64,000 nt of DNA from Anaerolineae bacterium (GTDB lineage Bacteria > Chloroflexota > Anaerolineae > B4-G1 > SLSP01): assembly GCA_034429475.1 (NCBI GenBank), contig DAOUGD010000126.1, positions 32,818 to 96,817 of the forward strand, given 5' to 3'. How positions within the stretch are numbered: position 1 is the stretch's first letter; each line of letters starts with the position of its first letter. The translations under genes were made by a program, and so were the position numbers. The notes under the pieces were generated by a model that saw nothing but the letters and a program-made list of their open reading frames with translations, made no database searches and was not told where the DNA came from. This document shows, piece by piece, positions 32,351 through 64,000 of the stretch.

Positions 32351-32364
32351 AGGACTGACCTGCT

Positions 32365-33327: not shown

Positions 33328-33346
33328 AACATAGGTTTTCTGTAGA

Positions 33347-33406
33347 GGGGATCAGGGATTAGGGATTGGGGTGGCCCGATCCTTAATTTCTAATCCCCGC
33401 CACTAT
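33347..33406. repeat. GGGATTAGGG palindromic element, copy 1
   Basis: GGGGATCAGGGATTAGGGATTGGGG ... CCTTAATTTCTAATCCCCGCCACTAT. A second copy is at 35950. Confidence 0.65.
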
Positions 33407-33559
33407 TTTCAGGGCGTTGGAGAGGAGGTGTCACAGAATGCTCGGAGTTCCTTGACGTAGCTAGGGACGGGCAGCCATAATGATGAATCAATGGGTTTGG
33501 AAGATAGATCAACTGTGTGTTGCTTAAATTCAATTAGCTCAAAGAAGGAAGGAGAAACT

Positions 33560-45971: not shown

Positions 45972-46081
45972 AACCTTGTAGGCTTTCGGCAATGTTTGTG
46001 GATGTTTTTTGCATTCTACCGGGGAATTGGATATAATTAAATTGGTTATTTTGATTTTGCTTGCTACTTAGTTCGTTTGAG

Positions 46082-46204: not shown

Positions 46205-46621
46205 ATGAAGGGAGCAGACATGTTTTTGGACGAAGAAACGAGCGGTCGTGGTGAAAAAATTTTGTACATCGAGGACAATCCCGGCAATCGTATGTTGGTG
46301 CGCCGTATCCTGTTAGTGGAAGACTACGTTGTCATTGAGGCCGAGAATGGCCGGGAAGGCGTAGCGGCGGCTTTGCGTGAAAACCCGGACTTGATCCTGA
46401 TGGATATGAACTTGCCCGAGGTGGATGGTTATGAATTGACCAAGCAGATTCGCGCCATCCCCGAAATTAAAAACATCCCCATTATCGCTATGACGGCGAA
46501 CGTGATGTTGGGGGACAAAGAGAAAACGTTAGAGGCCGGTTGTGATGGCTATATCCCCAAGCCGATTGATGTGGACGAGCTACCACGTCAGATTCGGCGT
46601 TTCCTGGATGCGCGGGGTTAG
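46205..46621 (+). CDS. single-domain CheY-like response regulator (receiver only)
   Basis: ILYIEDNPGN ... LILMDMNLPEVDG ... IAMTA ... KPID. GC is ~52%. Confidence 0.8.
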   Translation: MKGADMFLDEETSGRGEKILYIEDNPGNRMLVRRILLVEDYVVIEAENGREGVAAALRENPDLILMDMNLPEVDGYELTKQIRAIPEIKNIPIIAMTANVMLGDKEKTLEAGCDGYIPKPIDVDELPRQIRRFLDARG

Positions 46622-46664
46622 GGCAGCGCTGGCTGCTTAGGGATCTTTTTAAAGGATTGTACTC

Positions 46665-47084
46665 ATGGCATGGAAGCCGACACTTCCCAAAGACGCGGTC
46701 ATCCTGATTGTGGAGGATAACCTCAATAATTTCATCTTGATGACCCGCTTACTGGCCTTTTTGGGCGTGAAAAAGTGTGAGTGGAAGGCTTCCGGTTGGA
46801 AAGTGTTGGAGTTTGCCGAAACGCTGGGGAACGTCAGCCTGATTCTGATGGATATGAATCTACCAGAGGCCGACGGTTTTCAAGCGTTGGCGTCGTTACG
46901 TTCGCATCAGCGTTTCGTGGATGTGCCGATTGTGGCGGTAACGGCTCACGTATCTAGGGAAAATCTCAGCCGCGCGCGGCAGGCTGGATTTAACGGTTTT
47001 ATCGGCAAGCCTTTGGACCCGGAGCGTTTTCCCGAACAAATCCGCCGCGCCCTGCAAGGTGAGGAGGTATGGGAGCCGGAGTAG
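46665..47084 (+). CDS. single-domain CheY-like response regulator (receiver only)
   Basis: ILIVEDN ... LILMDMNLPEADG ... VAVTAH ... KPLD. Confidence 0.8.
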   Translation: MAWKPTLPKDAVILIVEDNLNNFILMTRLLAFLGVKKCEWKASGWKVLEFAETLGNVSLILMDMNLPEADGFQALASLRSHQRFVDVPIVAVTAHVSRENLSRARQAGFNGFIGKPLDPERFPEQIRRALQGEEVWEPE

Positions 47085-51389: not shown

Positions 51390-53055
51390 TCAGAAGCAGA
51401 TCGAGCCAGAAGTCGCCGCAGCGGACGCCGAAATCCGTGAGCTGCAGCATACCCTGTTGACCCACGTGATCCAGGTACTCTTTTGGGCCGGGATACCGGC
51501 GTTGGTGATGGGCATCTATTACGTCGTCACCGATGGCGATTGGATCTACGGCCTGGCGTATATCGGGCTTTTTCTCGTCCTGGGAATCCTCCGTCTGGTC
51601 AAGCGTATCCCCTACGGCGCCCAAATCGGCAGCCTGTTGGCGCTGGCCTATGGCCTGGCCCTGTTATCGGTCTTTCGCGGGGGATTGTCGAGCAACGTGC
51701 GCCTGTTTTTGCTGATGCTGCCCTTTATGGCCGTGGTGTTCTTGGGCGCGCGGGCCGGGCTGGTGCTGCTGCTGCTTTCCCTGTTGACCCTGGGTGAGTT
51801 TGCCGGGCTGTTTTCACTGGGGATCATGGAAATATCCACCGACGTGCAGGTCTTGTCCCACAAACCGGTGGCCTGGTTCAGCTACACCTTGACGTGGCTG
51901 TTTGCCAGTGTTTTTGTGGTAGCCTCCTTGACCCAACTGCTCACCCGTTTCCGGGCAACATTGATCAAAAGCCATGATCTGACCTACAAACTGGACACGC
52001 AGCGAATGCAGGCAGAGCAGAGCGCCGAATATGCGAACTTGCACGCCGTGCGGATGCAGTGGGTGGCCGAATTTGGCAATGCGTTAGCCTCACTGCGCCG
52101 GCGGGAAATGGTAGCATGGCGCACAGTGCGGGAGATGGAACGCAGCCTGAACCTCTATCAGGTGAATGTCTTCCTGGCCGACCGCACTGGCTCTACGTTG
52201 GTGCTGGCGGCGGCCGCCGGCGTGCAGGGCGAGACGCTGGTCGCCGAGGGCCTGTCGGTATGGGTGGGGGAACGATCGCTGTTGGGGAAAGTGGCGCAGA
52301 CCGGACGTGAACAAATTCGCGTGTTGTCGCCCGACGAAATGGAATACTTCCCGTTGAGCCGGGTGGAGACAGCCCTACCGCTGGTTGTGCGCGGTGAACT
52401 GTTGGGCATCTTAGACATTCACAGCACGGAATCCACATTTTCGGAGAGCGACATGCAGCTCTTTCGCGTGGTAGCCGGGTACGTGACGACTTCCCTGGAT
52501 ATGCTGGCCGCGCTGGAAGAGATCAACGGGCAGCTTCAGGAGATGCGCGCGTTGTATAACCAATACACCATCGCTTCGTGGCGTTCCTTGTTGGCGGAGA
52601 AGCTGAAATTGTCCTACGCCACCGGCGCGCTTTCTGAGGATCCCATCCAAACCCTGGCGGCCGAGGCGTTGCAGACCCGCACGGTGCGTTCCCGTCCGCC
52701 GGGTGAGGGGCTGGACGAGTACCTGCTCGTCGTGCCGTTGATTGCGCGGGACCTGCCTTTGGGCTATGTGGCCTTTACCCGTTCGGGAGAGCTGGGCGAC
52801 TGGGACGCTGAGACGCGCGTTTTCATCGAAGCCGCTGCCGAGCGTCTGGCGCTGGCGCTGGATAACACCCGCCTGTTGGTACAGACACGGCGGCAAGCCT
52901 TCTATCAGGAACAGTTGGGCCGCCTGGATGACGTGGTGTGGCGCAACCCGAGCACCGCTGCTATTATGGAGGGCAGTGTGCAGGAACTGGGGCGCGTCCT
53001 GGATGCCAGTGAAGTGCAAGTTTACCTGACGCCGATGGTGTGGGAGGCGCAATGA
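51379..53055 (+). CDS. polytopic-membrane coiled-coil protein with two GAF domains, no output domain (paralog 2)
   Basis: GTG start after GGGGAGG, overlapping the upstream stop by 11 nt (the ORF is open from 51271). ~6 TM helices. GAF (LNLYQVNVFLADRTG ... LPLVVRGELLGILDIHS) and a second GAF. Confidence 0.6.
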   Translation: MRDSQKQIEPEVAAADAEIRELQHTLLTHVIQVLFWAGIPALVMGIYYVVTDGDWIYGLAYIGLFLVLGILRLVKRIPYGAQIGSLLALAYGLALLSVFRGGLSSNVRLFLLMLPFMAVVFLGARAGLVLLLLSLLTLGEFAGLFSLGIMEISTDVQVLSHKPVAWFSYTLTWLFASVFVVASLTQLLTRFRATLIKSHDLTYKLDTQRMQAEQSAEYANLHAVRMQWVAEFGNALASLRRREMVAWRTVREMERSLNLYQVNVFLADRTGSTLVLAAAAGVQGETLVAEGLSVWVGERSLLGKVAQTGREQIRVLSPDEMEYFPLSRVETALPLVVRGELLGILDIHSTESTFSESDMQLFRVVAGYVTTSLDMLAALEEINGQLQEMRALYNQYTIASWRSLLAEKLKLSYATGALSEDPIQTLAAEALQTRTVRSRPPGEGLDEYLLVVPLIARDLPLGYVAFTRSGELGDWDAETRVFIEAAAERLALALDNTRLLVQTRRQAFYQEQLGRLDDVVWRNPSTAAIMEGSVQELGRVLDASEVQVYLTPMVWEAQ

Positions 53056-55277
53056 GTCTGACGCCATCTTTTAGCCAGATATTACAATGGCTGGCCCTGT
53101 CGTTGGCCCTGTTGGAAATCATCCTGCTGGGGTATCTCGTGGCGTTGAACCTGGGGCGCTCCCCCCTCCAGTTTGCGCGGCAGTGGTTATTGCGCACGCG
53201 CCTGCTGGTCTTGTTGCTGACGATCACCACCCCCCTGTTGACGGCCGGCATCGTGTGGGTGGTGGCCCAGGCGATGCAGTTGGTGGAAGCGAATGAGGCT
53301 CGGCGCCTGGAAGCGCTGAACGCGGCCCTGCTCTCCAATGCCGAGTTGTGGTACGAACTCCATACAGACGCCTTGAGCCAGTTAGTATCCGCACCGGCCA
53401 TCGTTAGCATGGATCCGGCGCAGCAGAAGTCTTTTCTGAAAATCATGGCCCAGACGCATCCCGACATGTACCTGGTAAGCACTCTAAATCTGACAGGGAT
53501 GAACGTCACACGCAGCGACGCCCTCCCTTTGACCAATTACGCCGACCAATCCTGGTTCCAGGCGGTGCAGTCCGGCGCCCCTCAGGTTTTCCAGGTAGTG
53601 GTGGAATCTACCGCCGGTATTCCCGCGTTGATAGGCGCCATGCCCATTTATGACAGCCGTGAGAACCTCGTGGGCGTCGGTATGTTCGCCTGCGCCCTGA
53701 CCGACATGGCTTCCCAGATGCGCCCCCAGACGGTGGGCAACACAGGGTATGCGTATATGGTGGACAGCAAAAATCGCCTGTTGGTGCATCCCGATCCGAC
53801 GGTGATGGCGCAGGCCGGCGACCTTGGCGAGTATCCATCGGTGAAAGCCCTACGCGCGCACACCGGCCCCTTGGTGAAATTCGAGAGCGAGGGCCGCCGG
53901 TGGTGGGCCGCCGTCAGCGAGGGTGGCCCGGACTGGGGCATTGTAGTGCAGCAGCAGGAGTTGGAACTGTTGCGGGACATGCGCACGTTTATGCAACTCG
54001 CGTGGCTGGTGGGGTTGGTGTGCGTGGGACTGTTGGCCCTGGCAAGCTACCTGGCGTTGCGTCAGGCCTTCCAACCCATCGTGGCATTGACCGGGACGAT
54101 CAATGCCGTTGTGGCAGGCGATTGGAGCCGCAGCCTCCCGGTGGAAAGAGGGGACGAATTGGGCGCGCTGGCGCGAGCCTTTAACGGCATGACCTCTCAA
54201 ATCCGGGACCTGATTCACACGTTGGAGTCGCGCGTGGCGGATCGCACCCGCGACTTGGAACAGCGTGCGACGTACCTGGCCGTCACGACCCAGGTCAGTC
54301 GCGTCGTCAACGCCATCCTGGACGTAGACGAATTGCTGCCGCGCGTCGCGCACCTGATTACCGATCGGTTCGGATTTTATCACGTCGCCATCTTTATGTT
54401 GGACGAAAGCGGCGAATGGGCCATTCTGCGCGCGGCCTCTTCTGAGAGGGGGCAGGGCATGGTGGCGCGCGGCCATCGCTTGCGCGTGGGTGAGCAGGGT
54501 ATCGTGGGCTATGTATCGAGTTCCGGGCGCCCGCGCATTGCGCTGGACGTGGATGTGGATGCCGTGTGGATGAAAAGCCCGGACTTGCCGACTACCCGCT
54601 CGGAAATGGCCTTGCCCTTAAGTGTGGGCGACCGGGTGTTGGGTGTTCTGGACATTCAGAGTGAGACGCCATCTGCCTTTTCCATAGAAGATGTGGAAAC
54701 GCTGCGGGTCCTGGCCGATCAAATCGCCATTGCAATTCAAAATGCACGACTGTTTCAAGGCAGCCAGCGGGCGCTGCGGGACTTGCAGCGCGCTTATGGC
54801 GAAACGGGGGCGCGGGCCTGGCGCACGCGCGCCTCGGCCCTGTTGGGGTACCGTTACACCCCCGAAGAAACCCGCCCGATTCTCGAATTACCCGAGACGC
54901 CGACGGATGCGATGAACTCCACCCACGTCACGCCCGCTAACACGTTGGTGGCGCCGCTGCGGATGCTCGGTGGGCGATCCTTTGGCGTTTTGCGGCTGGC
55001 CCGGCTTCCGGCGCAGCCCTGGACGGCGCAGGAGATTCAATTTGTCCAGCAGGCGGCGCAGGGGATAGCCCAGGCTTTGGAAGTTGGGCGTCTGTTAGAG
55101 GAGACCCGCGACCGGGCGGCACGCGACCATCTGGTCGGAGAGATTGGGGGGCAATTGCGCACAACTTTGGATCCCGATGCCATCATGAAGACGACGGTGC
55201 AGGCATTGGGACGCTTGTTGAAGGCCGAGTTGACCACCATTGAAGTCAGTGGCGGCTATGATGGAACGGATGGATAA
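53052..55277 (+). CDS. Cache-like, HAMP, GAF, GAF membrane sensor protein without output domain (paralog 3)
   Basis: GGGAGG RBS and an ATG overlapping the upstream stop. TM1, then a Cache-like periplasmic domain (NYADQSWFQAV ... GYAYMVDSKNRLLVHPDP), then TM2, HAMP, GAF (FGFYHVAIFMLDESGEWAILRAASS ... LPLSVGDRVLGVLDIQS), a degenerate GAF, and a C-terminal ELGRLL module. Confidence 0.65.
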   Translation: MSLTPSFSQILQWLALSLALLEIILLGYLVALNLGRSPLQFARQWLLRTRLLVLLLTITTPLLTAGIVWVVAQAMQLVEANEARRLEALNAALLSNAELWYELHTDALSQLVSAPAIVSMDPAQQKSFLKIMAQTHPDMYLVSTLNLTGMNVTRSDALPLTNYADQSWFQAVQSGAPQVFQVVVESTAGIPALIGAMPIYDSRENLVGVGMFACALTDMASQMRPQTVGNTGYAYMVDSKNRLLVHPDPTVMAQAGDLGEYPSVKALRAHTGPLVKFESEGRRWWAAVSEGGPDWGIVVQQQELELLRDMRTFMQLAWLVGLVCVGLLALASYLALRQAFQPIVALTGTINAVVAGDWSRSLPVERGDELGALARAFNGMTSQIRDLIHTLESRVADRTRDLEQRATYLAVTTQVSRVVNAILDVDELLPRVAHLITDRFGFYHVAIFMLDESGEWAILRAASSERGQGMVARGHRLRVGEQGIVGYVSSSGRPRIALDVDVDAVWMKSPDLPTTRSEMALPLSVGDRVLGVLDIQSETPSAFSIEDVETLRVLADQIAIAIQNARLFQGSQRALRDLQRAYGETGARAWRTRASALLGYRYTPEETRPILELPETPTDAMNSTHVTPANTLVAPLRMLGGRSFGVLRLARLPAQPWTAQEIQFVQQAAQGIAQALEVGRLLEETRDRAARDHLVGEIGGQLRTTLDPDAIMKTTVQALGRLLKAELTTIEVSGGYDGTDG

Positions 55278-55298
55278 CCTGCCCCGGGTGCGGAGGCT

Positions 55299-57146
55299 GT
55301 GATGCTGGAAACGTTGAACCCCTTTCTGGTAATCGCCGGTGTACTGCTGGCCGTCGCTCTCTTGCTGACGCTGGGGATAGCGCTGGCTTTGACGCGCGAT
55401 CTCCGGCGCACCCTGCGTGCGCTGACGGACGCGCTCGCACAGATGGCGGAAGGGACCTGGCCGCGGCTGCCGGCCCTAGGGCGGCAGGACGAACTCGGTG
55501 AGTTGGCGCGCGGGCTATCGGCGCTGTCTGCGCAGTGGCGGGAGCGCCTGGAGCGTATGAGTCAGGAGACCGTCGCGCAAACTACCCGCGCGGCGCAGCA
55601 AGCTGCCCGCGTGGCCGCAACCGCACGGGTGTCGCATCACCTGCTCGCCGTCGTCGGGACCGACGACTGGCTGGCTGTCTCCGTCCGCCAGATTTCGGAA
55701 CAGTGCAAGTTTTATCACGTGGGCGTGTTTTTGTTGGACGATGCGCGCCAGGCAGTCATCCTGCGCGCCGCCTCATCGGCGGTGGGACAGCGCTTGCTGG
55801 CCGGCGGCTACAAAGTGCTTCTGGCGGAATCCCCCGATTTCGACGCGGTGGTGGCGCACCGGCGGGCCATCATTCCGACCGTCGCCACCCCGACGCCCGC
55901 CGATTCCCCCTTCCCGCAGACGTGCTCCGCAGTGTTGCTGCCTTTGAACGTGGCCGGCGACGTGATCGGGGTGTTGGATATCCACTCGACGGAAGCGGCG
56001 GCTTTCGACTTTGAACAGGTGGCGCCTTTGCAAATGCTGGCCGACGCTTTGAGCCTGGCATGGCACATGGCGCACATCCAAACCACCGCCGCCGCCCAGA
56101 TTGACGAACTCAACCGCCTGCTGCGCACCCAGGGTGAAGAAGGGTGGGGGCTTTTAACGCGGGAACGGCGGCATTGGGGGTACGGGTATGACGGCGTTGA
56201 GGTGCGGCCCGCCGCCGAATTGGCCCTGGACGACCGCCCTCCCCAGTGGGTGCTGCCGCTCCAGGGGGGGCGTGAGGCAATGGGGGCGCTGAAAATCTTT
56301 GCCGACCCCGACGCGCTCGACGCCAATGACTTGGACCTGGTGCGCGCGGTGGCGGATCAGGCCGGCCGTGCGATGGAAAGCGCGCGGCTGTTCAGCAAAA
56401 TGCAGATCGCTTTGGAGGAAGTCGGCGTATTGTACCGGTGCAGCCAGGCGTTGGGCGTGGCGCGCACCGAGGAGCAAGTGTTGCGCGCGTTTGTGGATTA
56501 TTTGATAGCCCCAGAGATTGATCGCTGTGTGTTGGCCTTGATCGAGCCGGGCGCGGTTGAATCCAACCGCATCGTGCGCCTGGCGGCAGCCTGGGATGCG
56601 GGCAAGGCCCATTCGCCTCTCCTGGGGGATCGCTGGGAGGTGGCGAAGATTCCGATGATGGCCCAGACCACCACGGCGCCGCTGGCAATTCCGGATGTTG
56701 CGGCGGCCAAAAACCTGGACCCCGTCTCCCGGCAAGTTTTTCAGGAAGCGTTGCAACTGCGCGCGCTCATGTTGGTTCCCCTGGCAGCGGGAGGACAATT
56801 ATGGGGCTGGCTGCTGGCGGCTGCCACGCGCGCTCCCTACCATTTCACTGAGAGAGAATGGCGCGTATACCGCAGTCTGGCCGACCAGGCCGCCCTGGTG
56901 TTACAAAGCATCCGCTTGATGGAGGAGGTGACACAGCGCGCCGAGCGGGAACGGCGCGTGACCGACATCACGGCGCAGATTCGCCGTAACACGGACGTGG
57001 ACACGATTTTGCAGACTGCCATCCGGGAGTTAGGGCGGACGCTGCGTGCTTCTGATGGATTGATCCGCCTGGGATTGGGAGCGGATCGTCATGTCGGGCA
57101 TACTCAACCCTTGCGGCTTCCCGACGGCGTGGAGGATAAATCATGA
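55299..57146 (+). CDS. TM, HAMP, GAF x3 protein without output domain (paralog 4)
   Basis: GGAGG RBS. One TM helix, HAMP (LTRDLRRTLRALTDALAQMAEG), GAF (CKFYHVGVFLLDDARQAVILRAASS ... LPLNVAGDVIGVLDIHS), two further GAF-like modules and a C-terminal IRELGRTL module. Confidence 0.65.
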   Translation: MMLETLNPFLVIAGVLLAVALLLTLGIALALTRDLRRTLRALTDALAQMAEGTWPRLPALGRQDELGELARGLSALSAQWRERLERMSQETVAQTTRAAQQAARVAATARVSHHLLAVVGTDDWLAVSVRQISEQCKFYHVGVFLLDDARQAVILRAASSAVGQRLLAGGYKVLLAESPDFDAVVAHRRAIIPTVATPTPADSPFPQTCSAVLLPLNVAGDVIGVLDIHSTEAAAFDFEQVAPLQMLADALSLAWHMAHIQTTAAAQIDELNRLLRTQGEEGWGLLTRERRHWGYGYDGVEVRPAAELALDDRPPQWVLPLQGGREAMGALKIFADPDALDANDLDLVRAVADQAGRAMESARLFSKMQIALEEVGVLYRCSQALGVARTEEQVLRAFVDYLIAPEIDRCVLALIEPGAVESNRIVRLAAAWDAGKAHSPLLGDRWEVAKIPMMAQTTTAPLAIPDVAAAKNLDPVSRQVFQEALQLRALMLVPLAAGGQLWGWLLAAATRAPYHFTEREWRVYRSLADQAALVLQSIRLMEEVTQRAERERRVTDITAQIRRNTDVDTILQTAIRELGRTLRASDGLIRLGLGADRHVGHTQPLRLPDGVEDKS

Positions 57147-59365
57147 AGCGGCTGTCATTCATTACGAAGAATCTGCTCAACCGGATGATCGCCTATGTAC
57201 TGGTGTTGCTGCTGTTGACCATCAGCCTGATGGGGTATTTGGCTTACATCCTCGCGCGTCAAAACCTGACCGACTCGGTCTTCAATCGCCTGGAATCGGT
57301 GGTGACACTCAAGGAAGACGAATTGCAGCGTTGGGTAGCGGATCAGCGGCAGAACGTTACCTGGATGGCAGGGCAAGAGCCGGTGCGTCGCTGGACCGCG
57401 CAACTGCTTCAAGGCGATGTTGAACGAGCGACCGTTTACACCACGTTTTGGGCTTATTTACGGGCCGCCGTGACGCAAAGAGCCGGACTGCGGGAACTCT
57501 TTGTGCTGTCTGTGCCGGAGGGTCAGGTGTTGATTTCCTCCACTCAAGCGCACGAAGGGCAATCTCAGGCGGCCGCCGAGTACTTCATCCAGGGCCGTGC
57601 GGGAATTTATGTCCAGACCATCTACGTGGCGGAGGATGGCGAGCCGACCATCACCATCGCCAACCCGATATTTAACGCCGCCGGAGAATGTATCGGCGTA
57701 CTGGCGGCGCATCTGAATTTGGAGCGGATGCAACAGATTATCCTGGAAGGACCGGGCATGGGCGCCCGCAGTGAGGTCTTTCTGGTGGATGGCGCCGGCG
57801 ACTTCGTCGTGGCGCCCCGCGCGTTGTTGGCCGCCGGCGTGGACCTGGGGGCGTTGACTGCCGGGGTACGGGCGGTGATCGCGGGGCAAGACGGGCAGGC
57901 CACTTATTCAACCTATGAAGGTCATTCGGTGCTGGGCGCCTATCATTGGCTGGATGAGTACGGCCTGGGGGTCGTGGCCGAGGTGGGTGAAGATTACGCC
58001 ATTCTGGCGCCAGCGCGTCGCTTGTCGGCAACGGTGTTGGCGGTTGGATCGGGCGCGTCCATCCTGTTGCTGATCGGTGCAGTCTTGCTGATGCGACAAG
58101 GAATGCAGCCGTTGCGCGCGCTGACCGAGGTCGCCCGTGAAGTCGCGCAGGGACGGCTGGACCGACAGGCCCCTGTCGTCACCGAGGATGAGTTGGGCGT
58201 CTTCGCGCAGACGTTCAATCAAATGACCGCGCAACTGCGCGCGTCGTATGCCGAACTGGAACAGCAAGTGCGTGTGCGGACCCAGACTCTGGAAAAACGT
58301 TCACGTCAGTTGGAGGCGGCGGCGCGCGTCGCCAGCGCCGTCTCGGCCATCTACAACGTGGACCAACTGTTGGACGAGACCGTGCGCTTGATCCCGACCC
58401 ACTTTGACGTAGATCATGCCGGCATCTTCCTTTTGGATGAGGCCGAGGAATACGCCGTTCTGCGGGCGGCCTCTTCGGAGGGGGGGCTGCGGATGTTGGC
58501 GCGCGGCCACCGGCTGCGGATCGGGCAGGGGATTGTCGGCTCCGTGGCGCACACCGGTCAGCCTCGCATCGCCCTGGATGTGGACGCCGACGGCGCGTTC
58601 GTACCTAACCCAGACATTCCGGCGACGCGCTCGGAAATGGCGCTGCCCCTGCGGGCGCGCAACCGGGTGATTGGCGTGCTGGACGTGCAGTCGGAGCAGG
58701 CGGCAGCCTTCGCTGAAGAGGATGTTTCGGTGTTGCAGACGATGGCGGAGCAGGTGGCCCTGGCGATTCAGAATGCGCGTCTGCTGCGAGAAAGTGAGTT
58801 CGCGGTGCGCGAGTTGGAGCGACGCTATGGAGAGCAAATTCATACCGCGTGGCAGGCGCGGCTTTCCCGTGAGGCGGCAGCCTATCGCTACACCGGTGTG
58901 CGGGTGGAACCGGCCGGGGGGCGCACCCTACAAAAGTTCCCGGCCATTCCGCCCGATCACGTCACGTTAGTGAATGAGGGTGAGGCGGGGCGGCGTCTGA
59001 CCGCGCCGATTCGGATGCGGGATCACATTTTGGGTTCGATTGTGTTGCAGCAGAACCCGGACGAGCCGCCGTGGTCGGAGGCCGACATGACGCTGTTAGA
59101 AGCCACCTGCGATCAGATTGGTATGGCGTTGGACAATGTCCGCTTGTTGGATGAGTCACGGGAACGGGTGGCCCGCGAGCGGCTGACCGGCGACCTGGCC
59201 GCGCGGATTCGGGCGGCCTCCACCGATATAGACGTGGTGTTGCAGACCACCATCCGCGAGTTGGGTCGGCTGTTGCACGCCACCGGCAAAATTCACCTGA
59301 GCGGGCCTTCTGCCTGGGCCTCCACCGCGGCGGAGAATTCTGCCGAGAGCGAAAGGCAGGCGTAA
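57143..59365 (+). CDS. Cache-like, HAMP, GAF, GAF membrane sensor protein without output domain (paralog 5)
   Basis: ATGA overlap with the upstream stop. TM1, a Cache-like domain, TM2, HAMP (LRALTEVAREVAQGRLDRQ ... FNQMTAQLRAS), GAF (HFDVDHAGIFLLDEAEEYAVLRAASS ... LPLRARNRVIGVLDVQS), a second GAF and a C-terminal IRELGRLL. Confidence 0.65.
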   Translation: MKRLSFITKNLLNRMIAYVLVLLLLTISLMGYLAYILARQNLTDSVFNRLESVVTLKEDELQRWVADQRQNVTWMAGQEPVRRWTAQLLQGDVERATVYTTFWAYLRAAVTQRAGLRELFVLSVPEGQVLISSTQAHEGQSQAAAEYFIQGRAGIYVQTIYVAEDGEPTITIANPIFNAAGECIGVLAAHLNLERMQQIILEGPGMGARSEVFLVDGAGDFVVAPRALLAAGVDLGALTAGVRAVIAGQDGQATYSTYEGHSVLGAYHWLDEYGLGVVAEVGEDYAILAPARRLSATVLAVGSGASILLLIGAVLLMRQGMQPLRALTEVAREVAQGRLDRQAPVVTEDELGVFAQTFNQMTAQLRASYAELEQQVRVRTQTLEKRSRQLEAAARVASAVSAIYNVDQLLDETVRLIPTHFDVDHAGIFLLDEAEEYAVLRAASSEGGLRMLARGHRLRIGQGIVGSVAHTGQPRIALDVDADGAFVPNPDIPATRSEMALPLRARNRVIGVLDVQSEQAAAFAEEDVSVLQTMAEQVALAIQNARLLRESEFAVRELERRYGEQIHTAWQARLSREAAAYRYTGVRVEPAGGRTLQKFPAIPPDHVTLVNEGEAGRRLTAPIRMRDHILGSIVLQQNPDEPPWSEADMTLLEATCDQIGMALDNVRLLDESRERVARERLTGDLAARIRAASTDIDVVLQTTIRELGRLLHATGKIHLSGPSAWASTAAENSAESERQA

Positions 59366-59367
59366 CC

Positions 59368-60591
59368 ATGGCGACGTGGGGTTGGTTGGTTATCATCGCG
59401 GTAGTGCTGGCGGTGGCTGGCGGCGTGGTGGCGTGGCAGTGGCGGCGCGTTCAGGCGCTGCTGGCCCAACAGCACCTATTGGAACGGCGCATAGCCGAGC
59501 TAATGGACGTCCAGACGACAGAACGGCAGCACTTGACGCAGCAGGCTGAAGCCTTTGCGCAGCGCCTGGAGCGTTTCCGGGCGGCAGCGCTGGTGGCGCG
59601 GGATGCCGCCGCCATTCGTAACTTGGACGAATTGATGCAGGCGTTGGTGACGCTGATCTCGCAGCGCTTCGACTTTTATCATGCCGGGGTGTTCTTGTTG
59701 GATGATGCCGGCGACTTCGCGGTGATGCAGGCGGCGTCATCCGAAGGGGGGCGGCAAATGCTGGCGCGGGGACACAAACTGCGGGTGGCCGAGCAGGGGA
59801 TCGTGGGGTACGTGGCGGCGCGGGGGGAAGCGCGCATTGCCCTGAACGTCGGCGAGGACGCGGCCTGGGCCAGCGCGCCGGAACTGCCGAAAACTCGCTC
59901 AGAGATGGCGCTGCCTTTGAAGGTGCGCGAGCAGGTCATTGGCGTGCTGGACGTGCAGTCTACCGAACCGCAAGCCTTTATCCAGGAGGACATTGAAGTA
60001 CTCCAAACAATGGCCGATCAGTTAGCCTTGGCGATTCAGAGCGCGCGGCTGTTTGAGGAAAACCGGCGCACCGTCGAGCGGTTGGAGATCCTGTACCGGG
60101 AGCAGATGGGGGAAATATGGCGCAGCCGGGTCGGCACGCGCACCTACATCTACGATGGCCTGAACGTCGCGCGCGCGCTGGCGGAGGAGACGCCGGCGTT
60201 GGTCAATAGCCAGCACGTGGTCACGTCACACCAGTTGGTCATCCCGATCTTCCTGCGCGAGCACGTCATCGGTTCGATCACCCTGGAACGCGATCCGATA
60301 CAACTGCCCTGGTCGGATGAAGAGGTGGCGTTGGTGGAAGAGATCGGCGTGCAGGCCGGCCTGGCGCTGGACAATGCACAGTTGTTGGCCGACAGCCGGC
60401 AGCGCGCGACGTACCAGCAGCAGCTCAGCGACGTGTCACGGGTCTTTTCCGGGGCCGTGAACATGGAAGCAATGTTGCAGGCCGCCGTGCGTGAGTTGGG
60501 GCGGCTGCCGGGGGTGGCGGAGGTGGCCGTCCACATTGACGCTCCCCGCGCCGTTGCGAATGACATTGAGCAAGCGGCGAATGACGAATAG
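59368..60591 (+). CDS. single-TM coiled-coil GAF, GAF protein without output domain (paralog 6)
   Basis: N-terminal TM (WGWLVIIAVVLAVAGGVVAW), a coiled coil, GAF (FDFYHAGVFLLDDAGDFAVMQAASS ... LPLKVREQVIGVLDVQS), a second GAF and a C-terminal VRELGRL module. Confidence 0.65.
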   Translation: MATWGWLVIIAVVLAVAGGVVAWQWRRVQALLAQQHLLERRIAELMDVQTTERQHLTQQAEAFAQRLERFRAAALVARDAAAIRNLDELMQALVTLISQRFDFYHAGVFLLDDAGDFAVMQAASSEGGRQMLARGHKLRVAEQGIVGYVAARGEARIALNVGEDAAWASAPELPKTRSEMALPLKVREQVIGVLDVQSTEPQAFIQEDIEVLQTMADQLALAIQSARLFEENRRTVERLEILYREQMGEIWRSRVGTRTYIYDGLNVARALAEETPALVNSQHVVTSHQLVIPIFLREHVIGSITLERDPIQLPWSDEEVALVEEIGVQAGLALDNAQLLADSRQRATYQQQLSDVSRVFSGAVNMEAMLQAAVRELGRLPGVAEVAVHIDAPRAVANDIEQAANDE

Positions 60592-60646
60592 CGAATTACG
60601 AATGACGAATAACGAATTACGAATCACGAATTGTGAATTTCGGATG
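60582..60646. repeat. 8-mer tandem repeat (CGAATNAC variants x8) spanning the stop codon of paralog 6
   Basis: Read directly from the sequence. It belongs to the same family as the array at 29846. Confidence 0.65.
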
Positions 60647-60656
60647 AGGCAGGTCA

Positions 60657-63470
60657 ATGGCTGCTAAAAAGAGAGAGACGCTGATATCGGTGAAACCATC
60701 GAGCAGCGCGCGCCCCCGCCCGACGGTGGGGTTGCTGCTTTCCTGGCTGCGGGATGATTATCAAAGCGGCCTGGTGATGGATATGCATACGATAGCCCAA
60801 AAATTGGGGGTGGACTTGCTGTGTTTTGTGGGCGGCGATTTGCGCGAGGCGTATCCGCAAAACGTGATCTACGATCTGATCTCCTCCCAATGCGTGGAGG
60901 GTCTGATCATCAGTCCTTCCCTGTCGCACGCTTGCGACCCCGCCGTCCTGCACAATTTCTACGCCCGGTTTGCGGACCTCCCGCTGGTGAGCGGCGCGTT
61001 TGGCGTGCCGGAAATCAATCAGATTTTGTGCGACAACCTGGTGGGGATGCGCCGGGCGGTCGAACATCTTATTGTCGAACACCACTATCGCCGGATTGCC
61101 TTCGTCCGAGGGCCGGTGGGCCAGCCGGAGGCAGAGGCGCGGTATCAGGCATATCAAGAGGTGCTGGCCGCGCACCAGATTCGCCTGGATGAGAAATTAG
61201 TCATATTGGGCGACTTTACCGGCCCTGGTTCTCGCGCGGCTATTACCGAATGGCTCCAAAAGGGTGAGATTGTGGACGCCATTGTGGCTTCCAATGACGT
61301 CAGCGCGATGATTGCCATGGAAATATTGACGGCCCATGGCCTGCGGACGCCGGAGGACGTGGCAATAGTGGGGTTCGATGATGTGCCGGCCGCGCGCGCC
61401 CTGAGTGTGCCCCTGACGACCGTGCGCCAGCCGTTCTCCCAGATGTCGGAAATGATGATGGCGAACTTGCTGGCGCAGATCCGGGGAGAAACGCCGCCGG
61501 TCATCCAGATGGTGCCCTCTGAGTTGATTGTGCGTCGTTCGTGCGGCTGCCTGCCGGCATCGGTCCAACAGGCGCAGTTGGAAATGAGCGCGTATGTTGG
61601 CAAGGAAATCCTGGTGATGTCACGGGAGACCGTCCCGCAGGACGTTCCAGAAGTGCTGTGGTATGCCATGGTGGACGAGTTGGAAGGTGTCCTGGAGGGC
61701 AAATTCCTGGTCGCCTTTGACCAGATGTTGCACCAGACCTACCAGATGCATGGCGATATGGAGCGCTGGCAGGGAGTATTATCCTCTCTGCGCCATGCGG
61801 CGATGCTGTATGGGGTGCGGCAGCGTGCGGCGCGCCCGGAGTTCTTCGGCGCGCCGTTGGTGATGCGGCTGGAGACGCTCATACAGCAGGCGCGGATTCT
61901 GGCCAGCGAGGCAGCGTTGCGTATGAGCACTCGGCTGCGCCAGGACGACCGGGTGTATGTAGCCAATTCTCAGGCGTTGGATAGGGCGATGAACGCAGTG
62001 TTGGATTTATCTGAGCTGCCTGGGGTGTTTGCCCGTTTTTTGCCTCCCATTCCCATGAACATTTGCCACATAGCCCTCTATGCCGGAGATGGGCCAGCGT
62101 TCACTTCCCGCGCCCGGTTGGCGGTGAGTTACACACGCGGCCAATCGCAATTCCACCCAGACTCGGCTGCTTACCCGGCTACTGATTTGTTGCCGGCGCC
62201 TCTGTGGCCGCCGGCAGAACGGACGACCGTGGTGATTATGCCGTTGTTGATGCAAAACCAACAGTTGGGATTCGCCTTTCTGGGGCATGACTCTCCCCAC
62301 ATCTGGGTTTATGACCAGCTCAGCAGCCAATTGAGCGGGACTGTTTTTCGCGCCCTGCTGATCCAGCAACAGCAGGAAGCGCAGCGCGATGTGGAGCGGC
62401 TGTTGGCCGACCTCCAGCGGCGCGCTCGCTTGCTGGCCGGCGCTGCCGAGATTTCACGGGCCGCCACCTCGCTCACCCACCTGAGTGAGTTGCTGCCCCG
62501 TGCGGCGACGTTGATTTGTGAGCATTTCCGGTTGTACTATGTTGGAATTTTCCTGCTGGACGAGAGCCGGCAGTGGGCCGTGTTGAGTGCGGACGCCGGG
62601 GCGGCCAACCATCGCCTGTTGGAGCAGGGGTACAAACTGTCTGTCGGCCCTTCGTCCCTGGTGGGAACGTGTATGGCGACGGGGCAGGCTCAGGTGACGG
62701 CGGATGTGACGACGCAGGTCTCCTCTTACCTGGCGCACCCCTTGCTGCCGGACACTCGTTCCGAAGCCGTGCTGCCTTTGCTCAGCCGGGAGCGCGTGGT
62801 GGGCGCCATGAGCATCCAATCGGCCGAGCCGGAGGCCTTTTCCGCAGATGACCTGACGACGCTCCAGACGATGGCCGATCAGTTGGTCAATGCGATTGAA
62901 AATGTCCGCTTACTGGAACAAATGACGGAGAGCCGTTATGAATTGGAGATGGCCTCCGGGCAGTATACGGCCGAATCGTGGCGGGAGTACGTGAGTCACG
63001 CGGCGCAGCAGTTGGGGTATCGTTACCGGCAGGTGGCCGTGGAGCCGACCGCCGAAAAATCCCCTGAAGCGCAAATAGCCTTGGAACGCAATGTACCGGT
63101 GCTGGTGCCCTTGCTGGAAACCCCCGGTGTGCGCAGCGCGTTGGCTACTCCCATCCGCCTGCGCAATCAAATCCTCGGCGTGCTGAATGTGCGTTTTGAA
63201 GAGAGCGACGTGCCGCCCGAAACGGTGGAGTGGGTGAACCAGGTCGCTGATCGTCTGGCGATCTCGTTGGAGAGCGTGCGTTTGTTGCAGGAAACGCGCA
63301 GCACGGCCGAACGTGAGCAGTTAGTCGGGCGGGTGACGGCCCAAATGCGGGCGAACCTGGATGTGGACGCGGTCCTCAGAACGGCCGCCGCTCAGATCCG
63401 TGAGGTCATGGACCTGTCGCGGGTCACGATCCGCCTGGCGACCCGACCGCAAAAGTCAGACGAAGGCTGA
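60657..63470 (+). CDS. cytoplasmic LacI-type periplasmic-binding-fold (PBP type 1) domain fused to GAF domains, no output domain (paralog 7)
   Basis: The N-terminal ~330 aa resemble a LacI/sugar-binding core (LLLSWLRDDYQSGLVMD ... VGFDDVPAARALSVPLTTVRQP). Then GAF (FRLYYVGIFLLDESRQWAVLSADAG ... LPLLSRERVVGAMSIQS), further GAF-like modules and a C-terminal module. Confidence 0.6.
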   Translation: MAAKKRETLISVKPSSSARPRPTVGLLLSWLRDDYQSGLVMDMHTIAQKLGVDLLCFVGGDLREAYPQNVIYDLISSQCVEGLIISPSLSHACDPAVLHNFYARFADLPLVSGAFGVPEINQILCDNLVGMRRAVEHLIVEHHYRRIAFVRGPVGQPEAEARYQAYQEVLAAHQIRLDEKLVILGDFTGPGSRAAITEWLQKGEIVDAIVASNDVSAMIAMEILTAHGLRTPEDVAIVGFDDVPAARALSVPLTTVRQPFSQMSEMMMANLLAQIRGETPPVIQMVPSELIVRRSCGCLPASVQQAQLEMSAYVGKEILVMSRETVPQDVPEVLWYAMVDELEGVLEGKFLVAFDQMLHQTYQMHGDMERWQGVLSSLRHAAMLYGVRQRAARPEFFGAPLVMRLETLIQQARILASEAALRMSTRLRQDDRVYVANSQALDRAMNAVLDLSELPGVFARFLPPIPMNICHIALYAGDGPAFTSRARLAVSYTRGQSQFHPDSAAYPATDLLPAPLWPPAERTTVVIMPLLMQNQQLGFAFLGHDSPHIWVYDQLSSQLSGTVFRALLIQQQQEAQRDVERLLADLQRRARLLAGAAEISRAATSLTHLSELLPRAATLICEHFRLYYVGIFLLDESRQWAVLSADAGAANHRLLEQGYKLSVGPSSLVGTCMATGQAQVTADVTTQVSSYLAHPLLPDTRSEAVLPLLSRERVVGAMSIQSAEPEAFSADDLTTLQTMADQLVNAIENVRLLEQMTESRYELEMASGQYTAESWREYVSHAAQQLGYRYRQVAVEPTAEKSPEAQIALERNVPVLVPLLETPGVRSALATPIRLRNQILGVLNVRFEESDVPPETVEWVNQVADRLAISLESVRLLQETRSTAEREQLVGRVTAQMRANLDVDAVLRTAAAQIREVMDLSRVTIRLATRPQKSDEG

Positions 63471-63473
63471 GCA

Positions 63474-64000
63474 ATGATGAAACCACGCGAGAGAAACTGG
63501 GATTTAGGGATTGCCCGCTGGCCTATTTTCTATAAGGTCTTTGTCTTCGTCGGCCTGATTGCCCTGTTGGGCATTGGCGGCGTCAGCGCCGCTCTGATGA
63601 AGTTTTCCTACGACCGCTTGCAGGAACAGGCCCACACCGCGCTGCTCAACTCGGCCAGGCAACAGGCCGACTGGGTGGCCACTCTGTTGCTGGAGCAAGT
63701 CGCCTTTGTGCGGCACATCGGGCTGGATAGCGCGCTGACGACCGAGGCCGCCGCCCGCAGCCGCGAGTACGATCTGACGGCGGCGTTGACGCGGGCGGAG
63801 GAATGGCGTCAAGCCGCGGACGACAGCGAGTTGGTACGGCAAGTCGTGTCTGCCGACCTGAACCCCCTAGTCGGCGTGTTGCAGACTTATGCGCAGGAAT
63901 ATCCGGCGGTAGTGGCGTTGTTGGTGGTGGAGCGCCATGGCAACACGTTGGCGGCCACCTATCGTCCGGAGGCTTACCACCAACAGGAGGCGGACTGGTG
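63474..64000 (+). CDS. membrane sensor protein, N-terminal part (TM plus Cache-like extracellular domain); 3' end outside window (paralog 8)
   Basis: ATG 4 nt after the upstream stop; hand translation (MMKPRERNW...) is open to the window end. A TM helix (IFYKVFVFVGLIALLGIGGV) and a Cache-like start are visible. Confidence 0.5.
   Translation, partial: MMKPRERNWDLGIARWPIFYKVFVFVGLIALLGIGGVSAALMKFSYDRLQEQAHTALLNSARQQADWVATLLLEQVAFVRHIGLDSALTTEAAARSREYDLTAALTRAEEWRQAADDSELVRQVVSADLNPLVGVLQTYAQEYPAVVALLVVERHGNTLAATYRPEAYHQQEADW

Follow-up and report, generated by a model that had tools for sequence, protein, structure and literature searches.

What might a protein sense, and through what would it signal, if it carries the ligand-binding core of a sugar-responsive repressor, has no DNA-binding headpiece and ends in GAF modules rather than in a catalytic domain? 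The question is posed by one gene in a window of 64,000 nucleotides, the whole stretch analyzed here, from an Anaerolineae genome. The earlier note on this DNA had described the product as a core of the LacI/GalR/RbsB type fused to the GAF modules of an adjacent gene array and had proposed that it is a cytoplasmic sensor of a sugar-like molecule, of unusual architecture, feeding the same pathway as its membrane-bound paralogs. All of the peptide strings quoted there are present in the translation of the open reading frame (ORF), and a protein identical to it (P0001) is present in public collections. The features of the gene and its surroundings are collected in Table 1.

Table 1. Features of the sensor gene and its operon in the 64,000-nucleotide window
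Feature	Position	Strand	Residues	Basis or remark
Two stand-alone receivers of operon head (46205-46621, 46665-47084)	46205..47084	+		Pfam Response_reg, E 3e-28 and 6e-20
Head kinase, HAMP-GAF-HisKA-HATPase_c	47069..49462	+		
Six output-less paralogs: MASE11-GAF-tail x2, dCache-HAMP-GAF-tail, HAMP-GAF-tail, dCache-HAMP-GAF-tail, TM-GAF-tail	49425..60591	+		5' of target
Heptamer tandem repeat (CGAATNA)n	60578..60647	+		Occupies 65-nt spacer 5' of target
In-frame stop TGA (60645-60647), overlapping Shine-Dalgarno GAGG (60646-60649)	60645..60649	+		Read from sequence
Target, complete ORF: PBP1-SCGC-helical bundle-divergent GAF-GAF-miniGAF-GAF stub	60657..63470	+	937 aa	
LacI/GalR-type PBP1 effector-binding core	60720..61544	+	22-296	Pfam, NCBIfam, PDB by sequence, AF2, Foldseek
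Span of cleft residues R162 (61140-61142), F187, N213 (61293-61295), D214, D241 (61377-61379)	61140..61379	+		
Invariant motif R-R-S-C-G-C-L-P at core exit	61533..61556	+	293-300	
Helical bundle, family specific	61557..61994	+	301-446	AF2 helices
Divergent GAF	61995..62306	+	~447-550	AF2 five-stranded alpha/beta domain; hhalign
Long connecting helix	62307..62471	+	551-605	AF2 H550-605
Canonical GAF with C-terminal helix	62472..62912	+	606-752	Pfam GAF/GAF_2/GAF_3; model 2; BLAST to paralogs
Linker helix with W...YRY motif and mini five-stranded PAS/GAF-like domain	62913..63215	+	753-853	Model 2; Pfam; alignments
Long helix and terminal GAF N-terminal stub (helix, helix, first strand)	63216..63446	+	854-930	Model 2; hhalign
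Next array gene, dCache-GAF-tail, start only in window	63474..64000	+		794 aa in identical contig

The absence of a helix-turn-helix (HTH) is not a matter of a misplaced start codon. The in-frame TGA precedes the ATG by 3 codons, with the GAGG 7 nt 5' of it, so that an N-terminal extension, and hence an HTH, cannot be encoded, and the NCBIfam LacI/GalR/RbsR/CytR/PurR models match the protein only from about model position 60 on, which places the HTH part outside it. Pfam finds no HTH in the target, HisKA and HATPase_c have no match in it, and MCPsignal has none either there or in any paralog of the window. Together with the scans of the helical bundle reported below, these results uphold the view that the protein has no HTH and no DNA-binding or catalytic output. 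It is also soluble and cytoplasmic, as had been supposed: there is no transmembrane segment, the N terminus is not hydrophobic, and the maximum Kyte-Doolittle average over 19 residues is 1.37, versus 2.47 in a membrane paralog. Promoter-like and terminator-like sites are not in excess along the array as a whole, and the plus strand of the 65-nt spacer has no site of either type, so that internal initiation or termination of transcription there was rejected.

The first domain is an effector core of the LacI/GalR type. Peripla_BP_3 (residues 136-296, E 1.9e-29), Peripla_BP_1 (residues 22-268, E 5.7e-13) and Peripla_BP_4 (E 2.2e-10), the three Pfam families singled out beforehand as a check, all match the target, and its Pfam matches, to Peripla_BP and GAF families alike, far exceed the gathering cut-offs. 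The best PDB match by sequence is the LacI-family regulator 5ysz (E 1.9e-31). In the AlphaFold model the core has pLDDT values mostly above 90, and the top 50 Foldseek matches are all LacI-family repressor cores (target TM-scores of 0.70-0.87), with no transporter substrate-binding protein among them. The target is unlike an ABC-transporter sugar-binding protein, having neither signal peptide nor lipobox and GAF paralogs as neighbors, and RbsB and MglB models score far below those of the LacI type. The core was therefore correctly recognized, but it ends at about residue 296 and does not fill the first ~330 residues. With CelR (5ysz), LacI, AscG, RbsR and PurR it shares the two-lobe PBP type 1 fold at 22-32% identity, together with the ligand-anchoring Arg, Asn and Asp, and it resembles repressor cores more closely than it does the binding proteins of transporters; the repressors possess an N-terminal HTH headpiece, whereas the target has neither an HTH nor a tetramerization helix.

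The nearest solved relatives of the core are sugar bound (CelR with cellobiose, a LacI ancestor with D-fucose and RbsR with ribose). The ligand contacts R197, N246, D274, Q291 and W220 of LacI correspond to R162, N213, D241, Q258 and F187 of the target; the N-lobe contacts (LacI 69-79), not reliably alignable to LacI, are excluded from this mapping. Conservation was counted in an alignment of the target with 69 relatives (n = 70) and in ORFs from genomes (n = 74). R162 is retained in 70/70 and 74/74, D241 in 70/70 and 73/74, and N213 in 69/70 and 53/74, and positions 187, 213, 258 and 260, which differ from paralog to paralog, constitute a putative specificity shell. Invariant R162 and D241 in a predicted pocket with variable surroundings support a sugar-like ligand, and the strong selection apparent on this canonical predicted cleft agrees with the small-molecule sensing originally proposed.

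Beyond the core, the protein departs from its LacI-type relatives. R293, S295, C296, G297 and C298 of the motif at the core exit are retained in all 70 aligned sequences and all 74 ORFs, kinase and SpoIIE relatives included; no other conserved Cys or His that might partner the SCGC cysteines was seen in the family, conservation of C470 being partial (C in 32/70, W in 26/70). A profile of the helical bundle segment matched nothing in Pfam or the PDB, the best PDB match by sequence reaching only E 0.65, a Pfam scan of that segment alone from 13 family members gave no HTH or other family even at E ≤ 10, and hhalign found the bundle unrelated to GAF or DHp. A hidden HTH or output domain in the bundle was rejected on the strength of these empty PDB profile and Pfam scans. 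The succeeding domain aligns with a GAF profile over 128 columns (hhalign probability 81%, E 1.3e-5). Hundreds of Anaerolineae histidine kinases of the PBP1-GAF type share residues 297-585, and the target has all the marks of this unnamed family of cytoplasmic PBP1 sensors: the core, R-x-S-C-G-C, the bundle and the divergent GAF. The assignment of the C-terminal ~600 residues to the GAF modules of the array thus holds for the last ~350, residues 297-585 being a linker that belongs to the separate sensor family.

Residues ~585-937 are homologous to the paralogs of the window at 27-35% identity (BLAST), and the module common to all array paralogs begins at residue 606, with the canonical GAF. 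Pfam GAF, GAF_2 and GAF_3 match two stretches of the target, the better at 609-748 (E 1e-15 to 1e-25), with 77.6, 90.1 and 57.3 bits against gathering cut-offs of 22-29. This GAF contains a highly conserved LLPDTRSE...PL segment shared by all paralogs; on reading residues 606-752 we found no NKFDE-type signature of the cyclic nucleotide (cNMP)-binding GAF domains of phosphodiesterases. The second Pfam stretch coincides with the linker helix and mini-domain (pLDDT 82-91 in model 2), the domain proper occupying residues 788-853. In the last segment model 2 has helices at 854-899 and 903-918; the conserved stub there, equivalent to the opening ~50 residues of a GAF, is modeled with moderate confidence (pLDDT 60-79) and lies just before the stop. 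It aligns with columns 2-53 of the GAF profile (hhalign probability 92%, E 7e-7) and not with DHp; the possibility that the terminal helices are a DHp lacking its His, as in a pseudokinase, was rejected, since only the preceding linker aligns with the kinase profile (51%). The alpha/beta sensor-type modules (divergent GAF, GAF, mini-GAF/PAS) are joined by helices of 45-55 residues, and the C-terminal half superposes on tandem GAFs (Foldseek: 1mc0, 3ibj, 3lfv, 1ykd and 9cxg; E ~1e-8, 330-450 columns).

The architecture is recurrent in metagenome-assembled genomes of Anaerolineae and Thermoflexales, not rare, yet uncharacterized, and its description as unusual overstated the case. A homolog search returned 364 proteins, and among the 120 listed, 19 clusters have no output domain, like the target, while most others are kinases of the PBP1-GAF-HisKA-HATPase type and two have SpoIIE; species-representative Chloroflexota genomes contributed a further 312 matching stretches, which NCBI names 'substrate-binding domain-containing protein'. 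These kinases of Anaerolineales (e.g., P0022-P0120) and SpoIIE variants, themselves uncharacterized, are 27-35% identical to the target over 75-95% of the query and have the same core, SCGC motif, bundle and divergent GAF, but end in a catalytic transmitter where the target ends in a noncatalytic GAF, mini-GAF and stub. The fusion of the PBP1-SCGC-MID sensor to HisKA-HATPase or SpoIIE in relatives shows that the sensor module does drive signaling outputs. Our literature search found no published description of this architecture or of the array. Searches of a word-indexed protein database with the C-terminal module, as one sequence and as a profile of 27 copies, gave little beyond short fragments and were uninformative; an exhaustive HMMER search took their place.

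The genomic setting is highly ordered. Two receivers and the HAMP-GAF kinase are followed on one strand by 13 or more genes of the [sensor]-GAF-tail type, all without output, with gaps or overlaps of a few nucleotides only; 3 nt separate the stop codon of the target from the next array gene. The RR-RR-kinase head is present in at least 9 other genomes, and in 17 loci the HAMP-GAF kinase is the first gene before the array. This head kinase is itself a family member with its tail replaced by HisKA-HATPase, its HAMP-GAF part being 26-32% identical to the paralogs. All 438 tail-bearing ORFs, from 71 loci, lie on one strand, and 63 of the 71 loci have at least 3 of them. For each paralog in the window the best match is the collinear gene in other genomes, at 35-84% identity, and identity among the paralogs of the window themselves is lower, only 25-35%, a contrast that indicates an ancient ordered set and not recent duplication or decay; positional orthologs of the target occur in loci L001, L005, L006 and L007. 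The target has the marks of the array family, namely, the GAF, the W..YRY linker, the mini-GAF, the helix and terminal stub, and a place in a same-strand array behind the RR-RR-kinase head. In other genomes, the only ones from which it is known, the run closes with a hybrid kinase and with a receiver fusion of a threonine-synthase-like enzyme (PALP-REC); to extend the array of the window's own genome beyond a 1520-aa gene, metagenome contigs were scanned for exact matches to two DNA anchors taken from the end of L004, and neither anchor was found. The target and the membrane paralogs therefore do share a conserved operon; that they share a pathway is what the operon structure leads us to infer.

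We incline to the reading that the target is a cytoplasmic ligand sensor, probably dimeric, whose signal reaches the kinases of its operon by protein-protein contact. A sugar-like cytoplasmic metabolite would be bound in the interlobe cleft, and closure of the hinge would be transmitted through the SCGC junction and the helical bundle to the helix-linked GAF chain, which might act as a relay in the manner of tandem-GAF and GAF-PHY regulatory modules. Since this chain has no terminal effector, its output would have to be protein-protein contact, with the conserved GAF-helix-tail module as the interface. As partners, we consider most likely the operon head kinase, the terminal hybrid kinase or both, or else other array members in a mixed oligomer, and the net effect would be to modulate how the two single-domain receivers are supplied by phosphotransfer.

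The input and the output of such a sensor can each be read differently. SCGC is the most conserved feature, and the real input could therefore be redox state or a metal: 2 cysteines per chain, or 4 per dimer, might hold a metal or an Fe-S cluster or pair in a reversible disulfide, with the LacI-like core as a dimerization scaffold or secondary modulator. The motif sits exactly at the junction that any signal must cross and is conserved above most pocket positions whatever the output type (tail, HisKA-HATPase or SpoIIE), but R162 and D241 are equally invariant, paralog-specific variation in the pocket is hard to reconcile with a pure scaffold, and the cysteines lack conserved partners. We consider a primary redox or metal input unlikely; the two roles are not mutually exclusive. 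Also improbable, in our judgment, is a stand-alone effector or buffer that takes up a cyclic nucleotide or other metabolite at the canonical GAF independently of any kinase, the operon reflecting co-regulation only. Ligand binding is commonplace in GAF domains, which often accommodate cNMPs, heme, chromophores or amino acids (PMC4030172). Sensor and poly-GAF proteins without output are widespread, some of them outside any visible kinase context, and, being so common, may have a generic function independent of an adjacent kinase. The strongly conserved segment of the canonical GAF could be counted in favor of this role, but all paralogs have it, which is more in keeping with a shared transmitter or interface than with a ligand site that varies; the NKFDE-type signature is missing, and the collinear order kept with the RR-RR-kinase head across at least 10 genomes points to functional coupling.

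An unconventional transcription factor, with DNA bound by the bundle or the terminal helices, has a precedent in the PBP1 core and C-terminal DNA-binding domain of Escherichia coli XylR, and the bundle has no assigned function; given that the bundle scans were empty and that the same bundle precedes kinase or phosphatase outputs in relatives, where it behaves as a linker, we regard this as very unlikely. Scarcely credible is a functionless remnant, decayed or split from a PBP1-GAF histidine kinase or a giant poly-GAF kinase. Most of the listed relatives do have HisKA-HATPase, the protein stops inside the apparent start of another GAF, and giant poly-GAF hybrid kinases carry the repeat unit of the array module. 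Against this, the reading frame is unbroken through 937 codons, orthologs at 41-75% identity match the target in length and end point, the motifs are invariant throughout, tail included, and the truncation point is uniform in the 438 tail-bearing ORFs (the stop codon follows the tail profile at a median distance of 7 aa, and in 97% of the ORFs at no more than 40 aa). These conservation data effectively refute a pseudogene or fission remnant.

The sensor that we favor, one that signals to operon kinases by contact, has partial counterparts in known systems. In the LacI family the signal leaves the core through the N-terminal headpiece, whereas in the target it would leave through the C terminus via SCGC. 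The GAF-A/B pairs of PDE2A/5A/6C, CyaB2 and the GAF-PHY module of phytochromes share with the target the succession of GAF, long helix and second GAF-like domain; the helix relays their signal into a phosphodiesterase, cyclase, kinase or GGDEF domain, whereas in the target, where a dimeric-helix relay is presumed, it runs into the ~50-residue stub, and of the cNMP-regulated modules of PDEs and CyaB2 the target has the tandem GAF fold but neither the NKFDE signature nor a downstream catalytic domain. Bacteroides BT1754, a hybrid two-component protein with a periplasmic PBP1-fold sugar sensor fused to a kinase, and XylR, whose DNA-binding domain is of the AraC type, likewise have an N-terminal PBP1 sensor; the target differs in having no output domain and, from BT1754, in being cytoplasmic. 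In the ChvE-VirA system of Agrobacterium a noncatalytic sugar sensor of PBP fold modulates a histidine kinase and a GAF-type domain integrates the signal (PMC4030172). ChvE, however, is a separate periplasmic protein and the GAF is in VirA, whereas the target unites PBP and GAFs in one cytoplasmic polypeptide, its presumed kinase partner being separate.

A conserved operon of output-less sensors headed by a kinase, present in uncultured Chloroflexota, suggests that many receptors share one kinase system. Chemoreceptors (MCPs) and the RsbR paralogs of the stressosome are sets in which varied sensors share one noncatalytic C-terminal module, and the array may be akin to them, with its dCache-HAMP, membrane and cytoplasmic sensors, one kinase and CheY-like receivers. 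The analogy is functional only: the array has no MCPsignal, STAS, CheA/CheW or RsbT/RsbS, its shared module is GAF based, and co-assembly is hypothetical. Much more tentatively, at least 13 output-less receptors (dCache-HAMP, MASE11, membrane only and LacI type) might dock on or co-assemble with one kinase pair via the GAF-helix-miniGAF-stub, the half-GAF stub perhaps completing or capping a partner domain, and feed their inputs into a phosphorelay that ends, in related genomes, at the fusion of the threonine-synthase-like PLP enzyme and receiver.

LacI-type cores are textbook allosteric sugar sensors, and nearly all that is known of them concerns signaling to an N-terminal DNA-binding headpiece. 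Here, a LacI core with intact anchoring residues is wired via its C terminus to GAF-helix relays, and sister proteins wire such a core straight to histidine kinases and PP2C phosphatases; these proteins form a natural set of chimeras for learning how closure of the PBP1 hinge drives different outputs and may supply the engineering of cytoplasmic metabolite-to-kinase sensors with new parts. The operon context outweighs the single protein, for it bears on how sensors without outputs signal and whether one kinase is shared. The host lineage is abundant in digesters, sediments and hot springs, and for these largely uncultured Anaerolineae there are essentially no experimental data on signal transduction; if the multireceptor arrangement is real, it would be a previously undescribed counterpart, built on GAF modules, to chemoreceptor arrays or stressosomes in function.

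The ORF at window positions 60657 to 63470 (937 codons on the + strand in the ORF listing of the window) encodes a cytoplasmic protein in which a LacI-type effector-binding core is followed by a chain of GAF units and by no output domain, and of this domain-level description we are almost certain. Every peptide string quoted in the earlier note is present in its translation. GAGG lies 7 nt upstream of the ATG, and because an in-frame TGA occurs three codons before the ATG (60645 to 60647) and the preceding gene ends at 60591, an N-terminal helix-turn-helix (HTH) cannot be encoded. NCBIfam models for LacI, GalR, RbsR, CytR, and PurR align only from approximately model position 60 onward, and therefore the effector core alone is present; with the start fixed by the upstream TGA, the earlier claim that the HTH is missing is borne out. 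Pfam matches, all far above the curated cutoffs, were obtained with Peripla_BP_3 (residues 136 to 296; E 1.9e-29), Peripla_BP_1 (residues 22 to 268; E 5.7e-13), and Peripla_BP_4 (E 2.2e-10), the families that the earlier note had named as a check on the fold, and with GAF, GAF_2, and GAF_3 in two stretches (best, residues 609 to 748). Among solved structures, the LacI-family regulator 5ysz is nearest in sequence (E 1.9e-31). An AlphaFold2 model built with 70 homologs (pLDDT, 80.8 on average and mostly >90 for residues 20 to 300) gave 50 top Foldseek PDB matches that were without exception LacI-family repressor cores (target TM-scores, 0.70 to 0.87), including CelR-cellobiose (32% identity), LacI ancestors, AscG, RbsR, CcpA, and PurR, and with no transporter-type binding protein among them; the LacI-type core proposed from the sequence is upheld. 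The protein contains no hydrophobic segment (maximum Kyte-Doolittle 19-residue average of 1.37 versus 2.47 for the control, a membrane paralog) and is therefore cytoplasmic, as had been supposed.

Two structure models and local profile comparisons provided the anatomy set out in the table. The helical bundle that follows the core has no relatives in Pfam or the PDB, and a profile of 13 sequences brought up none at E values of ≤10. The terminal ~55 residues were placed by hhalign on columns 2 to 53 of a GAF profile 167 columns long (probability, 92%; E 7e-7), columns that cover helix, helix, and first strand; assignment of the terminal helices to the DHp of HisKA was ruled out, as hhalign gave no alignment to DHp. 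Homology to the window paralogs is confined to approximately residues 585 to 937 (27 to 35% identity), and the earlier description of the C-terminal ~600 residues as GAF modules of the array therefore stands for that portion and needs correction for residues 297 to 585, a linker peculiar to the PBP1 sensor family.

The most conserved feature of this family lies outside the ligand pocket, where the chain leaves the PBP core: R293-x-S295-C296-G297-C298 is invariant in all 144 sequences examined (70/70 homologs and 74/74 ORFs from genomic loci), and the SCGC motif is kept in relatives with a kinase or SpoIIE phosphatase output. The cleft was mapped by aligning the PBP1 family with E. coli LacI and its ligand-contact residues, a mapping that includes no N-lobe contacts and in which R197, N246, D274, Q291, and W220 of LacI correspond to R162, N213, D241, Q258, and F187, respectively. 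Conservation was scored in 70 homologs and in 74 genome-locus ORFs, 65 of them array type. As judged from these alignments, a constant anchoring core within a variable shell is the pattern that would be expected of paralogs binding different but related polar ligands. The nearest solved relatives are sugar bound, and we consider a sugar-like ligand reasonably probable.

Features of the window (nucleotides), of related loci (nucleotides of each locus), and of the PBP1-GAF protein (residues)
Feature	Position	Strand	Basis or remark
CGAATNA array	29846-29899		between AAA-TPR gene and TPR gene
Two ABC permeases, SBP_bac_1/DUF3502 lipoprotein	31295-35149		carbohydrate-uptake-type transporter
Aromatic amino acid ammonia-lyase	38931-40469
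910-aa ORF	43239-45971
Best promoter-like site	46008-46037
Stand-alone receivers, two	46205-46621, 46665-47084	+	operon head
HAMP-GAF-HisKA-HATPase kinase	47069-49462	+	after receivers
MASE11-GAF (two), dCache-HAMP-GAF, HAMP-GAF, dCache-HAMP-GAF, TM-GAF	between kinase and PBP1-GAF gene, in that order	+
Paralog 4	55299-57146		HAMP-GAF-tail-tail
GAF-N-terminal stubs	63309-63446; e.g., 60450-60560, 59230-59340
CGAATNA array	60578-60647		directly upstream of PBP1-GAF gene
R-x-S-C-G-C region	61533-61556
Further gene	start 3 nt past PBP1-GAF stop codon	+
PALP-receiver fusion, L065	16726-18456
PALP-receiver fusion, L056	15922-17601
PALP-receiver fusion, L059	9655-11427
Disordered	1-21		model
PBP1 core	22-296		Pfam, model, Foldseek
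R-R-S-C-G-C-L-P motif	293-300		family alignments
Five-helix bundle	301-446		model
Five-stranded alpha/beta domain, a divergent GAF	~447-550		hhalign, 128 columns, probability 81%, E 1.3e-5
Helix	550-605		model
Canonical GAF	606-752		Pfam, model
Helix	up to ~781		model
Compact five-stranded PAS/GAF-like mini-domain	788-853		model
Helix	854-899		model
Short terminal helix (a short strand-like tail follows)	903-918		model
Cleft R162	162		70/70 homologs; 74/74 locus ORFs
Cleft F187	187		F or Y in all 70 homologs; F, Y, H, or N in locus ORFs
Cleft N213	213		69/70 homologs; locus ORFs N 53, D 15, S 4
Cleft D214	214		70/70 homologs; 73/74 locus ORFs
Cleft D241	241		70/70 homologs; 73/74 locus ORFs
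Cleft Q258	258		66/70 homologs; locus ORFs Q 51, W 10, M 7
Cleft position 260	260		F in 51 of 70 homologs; variable in 74 locus ORFs

Neighboring genes of the operon overlap or sit a few nucleotides apart, the sole exception being a 65-nt spacer before the PBP1-GAF gene, and the first receiver gene is preceded by the best promoter-like site. The head kinase is 26 to 32% identical to the window paralogs over HAMP-GAF. Past the PBP1-GAF gene, the identical contig continues with five more output-less GAF paralogs and then a 1520-aa PAS/GAF multidomain protein. Tandem arrays of the heptamer CGAATNA (7 to 10 copies) occupy two intergenic spacers of the window, one of them filling the 65-nt spacer, the one gap of any size between the sensor genes, and CGAATKACGAAT is matched 13 times at ≤1 mismatch, versus 0.61 expected by chance. 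No Pfam family matches the 910-aa ORF that immediately precedes the promoter-like site; the transporter genes and the ammonia-lyase gene are not adjacent to the operon.

Local HMMs made from the window's own domains were used to annotate 72 loci. The tail unit, the C-terminal module shared by the array proteins, was found in 438 ORFs, all on one strand, and at least three tail-bearing ORFs were present in 63 of 71 loci (median, 6, with as many as 12 in 24 kb); the architectures were GAF-tail (116), dCache/HAMP-GAF-tail (108), MASE11-GAF-tail (42), and PBP1 containing (~70). The head of two receivers and a kinase recurs in L009, L019, L028, L040, L044, L050, L063, and L066; L043 shows one receiver and a kinase, and in a further seven loci only the kinase is visible, at the edge of the locus. 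Where the 3' end of the array is visible (L056, L058, L059, L060, L065, L068, and L070), it is formed by a hybrid kinase of 846 to 2331 aa carrying tail-type units, HisKA-HATPase, and one or two receivers, and is followed by a protein of 560 to 591 aa, which in the three cases compared with Pfam (L056, L059, and L065) comprises a PLP-dependent enzyme (PALP; threonine-synthase-like, at 253 bits against a cutoff of 303) and a C-terminal receiver. A REC-HisKA-HATPase protein comes next in L056, L058, L065, and L068. The best matches of the window paralogs are collinear in L005 (67 to 84% identity), L001 (46 to 62%), L006 (43 to 57%), and, for the most part, L007 (35 to 47%); identity between paralogs within the window is 25 to 35%. 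Because gene order is orthologous and the PBP1-GAF ortholog occupies the matching slot in all four loci, the array is ancient and ordered and its PBP1 member is fixed. The whole is a conserved super-operon that occupies window positions 46205 to 64000 and runs on past the window (L004, the identical contig); it comprises two receivers, one kinase, and a series of [sensor]-GAF-tail genes, at least 13 in number and without output, all on one strand, and is collinear with genomes down to ~40% identity.

All array paralogs end alike, with a canonical GAF, a helix with W...YRY, a mini-GAF, a helix ending in ...LExxRLL, and a stub. The distance from the end of the tail profile to the stop codon has a median of 7 residues and does not exceed 40 residues in 97% of ORFs, a uniformity that makes the abrupt ending a conserved feature. 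The stub that closes every array protein is the N-terminal part of a GAF (helix, helix, and first strand), and the segment matching it runs on into a full GAF in giant poly-GAF proteins (P0138 to P0287; 1400 to 3952 aa, with 8 to 22 tandem GAF units). When the tail unit was used in an exhaustive HMMER search, 111,043 representative proteins were recovered at E values of ≤1e-3 and 11,723 at ≤1e-30, the best being proteins of 1400 to 3950 aa with 8 to 22 tandem copies; one of five giant proteins examined is a 17-GAF hybrid kinase, and the rest are output-less sensor-plus-poly-GAF or GAF-only chains. From these results, the tail unit is a single repeat from poly-GAF chains that are widespread, and the sensor joined to a GAF chain with no output is a broad uncharacterized class. 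Paralog 4 has two tail-type units, as do its orthologs in L001, L006, and L007, and the L005 ortholog scored as GAF-tail only; by these domain assignments, the two-tailed form is a conserved variant within the array. In Foldseek comparisons, the C-terminal half of the PBP1-GAF protein matches two kinds of module, the tandem GAFs found in PDE2A/5A/6C and in CyaB2 and the GAF-PHY of phytochromes, in all of which a helix relays the signal to a catalytic domain; helical linkers between GAFs and signaling helices have been reviewed (PMC1592074).

The architecture had been called unusual; it is less so than supposed, but it is uncharacterized, and no description of it was found in the literature searched. 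A full-length search returned 364 homologs, and 312 stretches in species-representative genomes encode relatives. Among the 120 homologs listed, P0001 to P0019 are PBP1-GAF proteins of 935 to 1208 aa without an output domain, most others are PBP1-...-GAF-HisKA-HATPase_c kinases of 1040 to 1400 aa, and PBP1-SpoIIE occurs twice and PBP1-PAS-GAF once. Every domain is known, and this cytoplasmic wiring of a LacI core to GAFs is already in the databases under generic names ("substrate-binding domain-containing protein" or [quoted passage not shown]). Every listed locus belongs to a Chloroflexota MAG (Anaerolineae, Anaerolineales, Thermoflexales, or Thermoflexia) save L029 (JAGPEO010000064.1), an array locus from a MAG labeled Phycisphaerae, whose contig is probably mis-binned.

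We lean, if only slightly, toward a ligand sensor that signals by contact to the kinases of the operon. The protein would dimerize in parallel, as LacI cores and tandem GAFs do, and its PBP1 clefts would close on a sugar-like metabolite; closure would be passed via the SCGC junction and then the bundle of helices to the helix-linked GAF chain, and onward through protein-protein contact made by the conserved GAF-helix-tail module. Its partners are most likely to be the kinases of the operon. The head kinase is in effect a family member with its tail swapped for HisKA-HATPase, and the terminal hybrid kinase has tail units in cis. In relatives, the PBP1-SCGC-MID sensor is fused directly to a kinase or phosphatase, and thus the sensor module does drive signaling outputs. 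A GAF-based multireceptor signaling complex is a tentative and rather doubtful extension. Chemoreceptor or RsbR paralog sets whose members share one kinase are among the closest functional analogies. ChvE-VirA, in which a PBP sugar sensor modulates a kinase with a GAF-like linker (PMC4030172), is another.

An autonomous effector whose GAFs bind ligand independently of a kinase is unlikely, as the protein lacks a cNMP signature and the collinear kinase context counts against it. Sensing of redox or metal through the SCGC motif we judge equally unlikely; two cysteines per chain give four per dimer, so that a metal, Fe-S, or redox/disulfide role for this putative site is possible, and such sensing and the binding of a ligand are not mutually exclusive. 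No HTH was detected in the helical bundle, the sole unassigned region, which makes a relocated DNA-binding element very improbable, and the notion of a decaying kinase remnant, refuted by conservation, is scarcely credible. What is truly odd is that the SCGC junction is invariant, that the half-GAF ending is conserved, and, most of all, that the operon is ordered, an operon in which at least 13 output-less receptors lie between kinases and which ends, in related genomes, in a PLP-enzyme-receiver fusion; if an enzyme of amino acid metabolism is indeed under phosphorelay control, it would be an unusual output.
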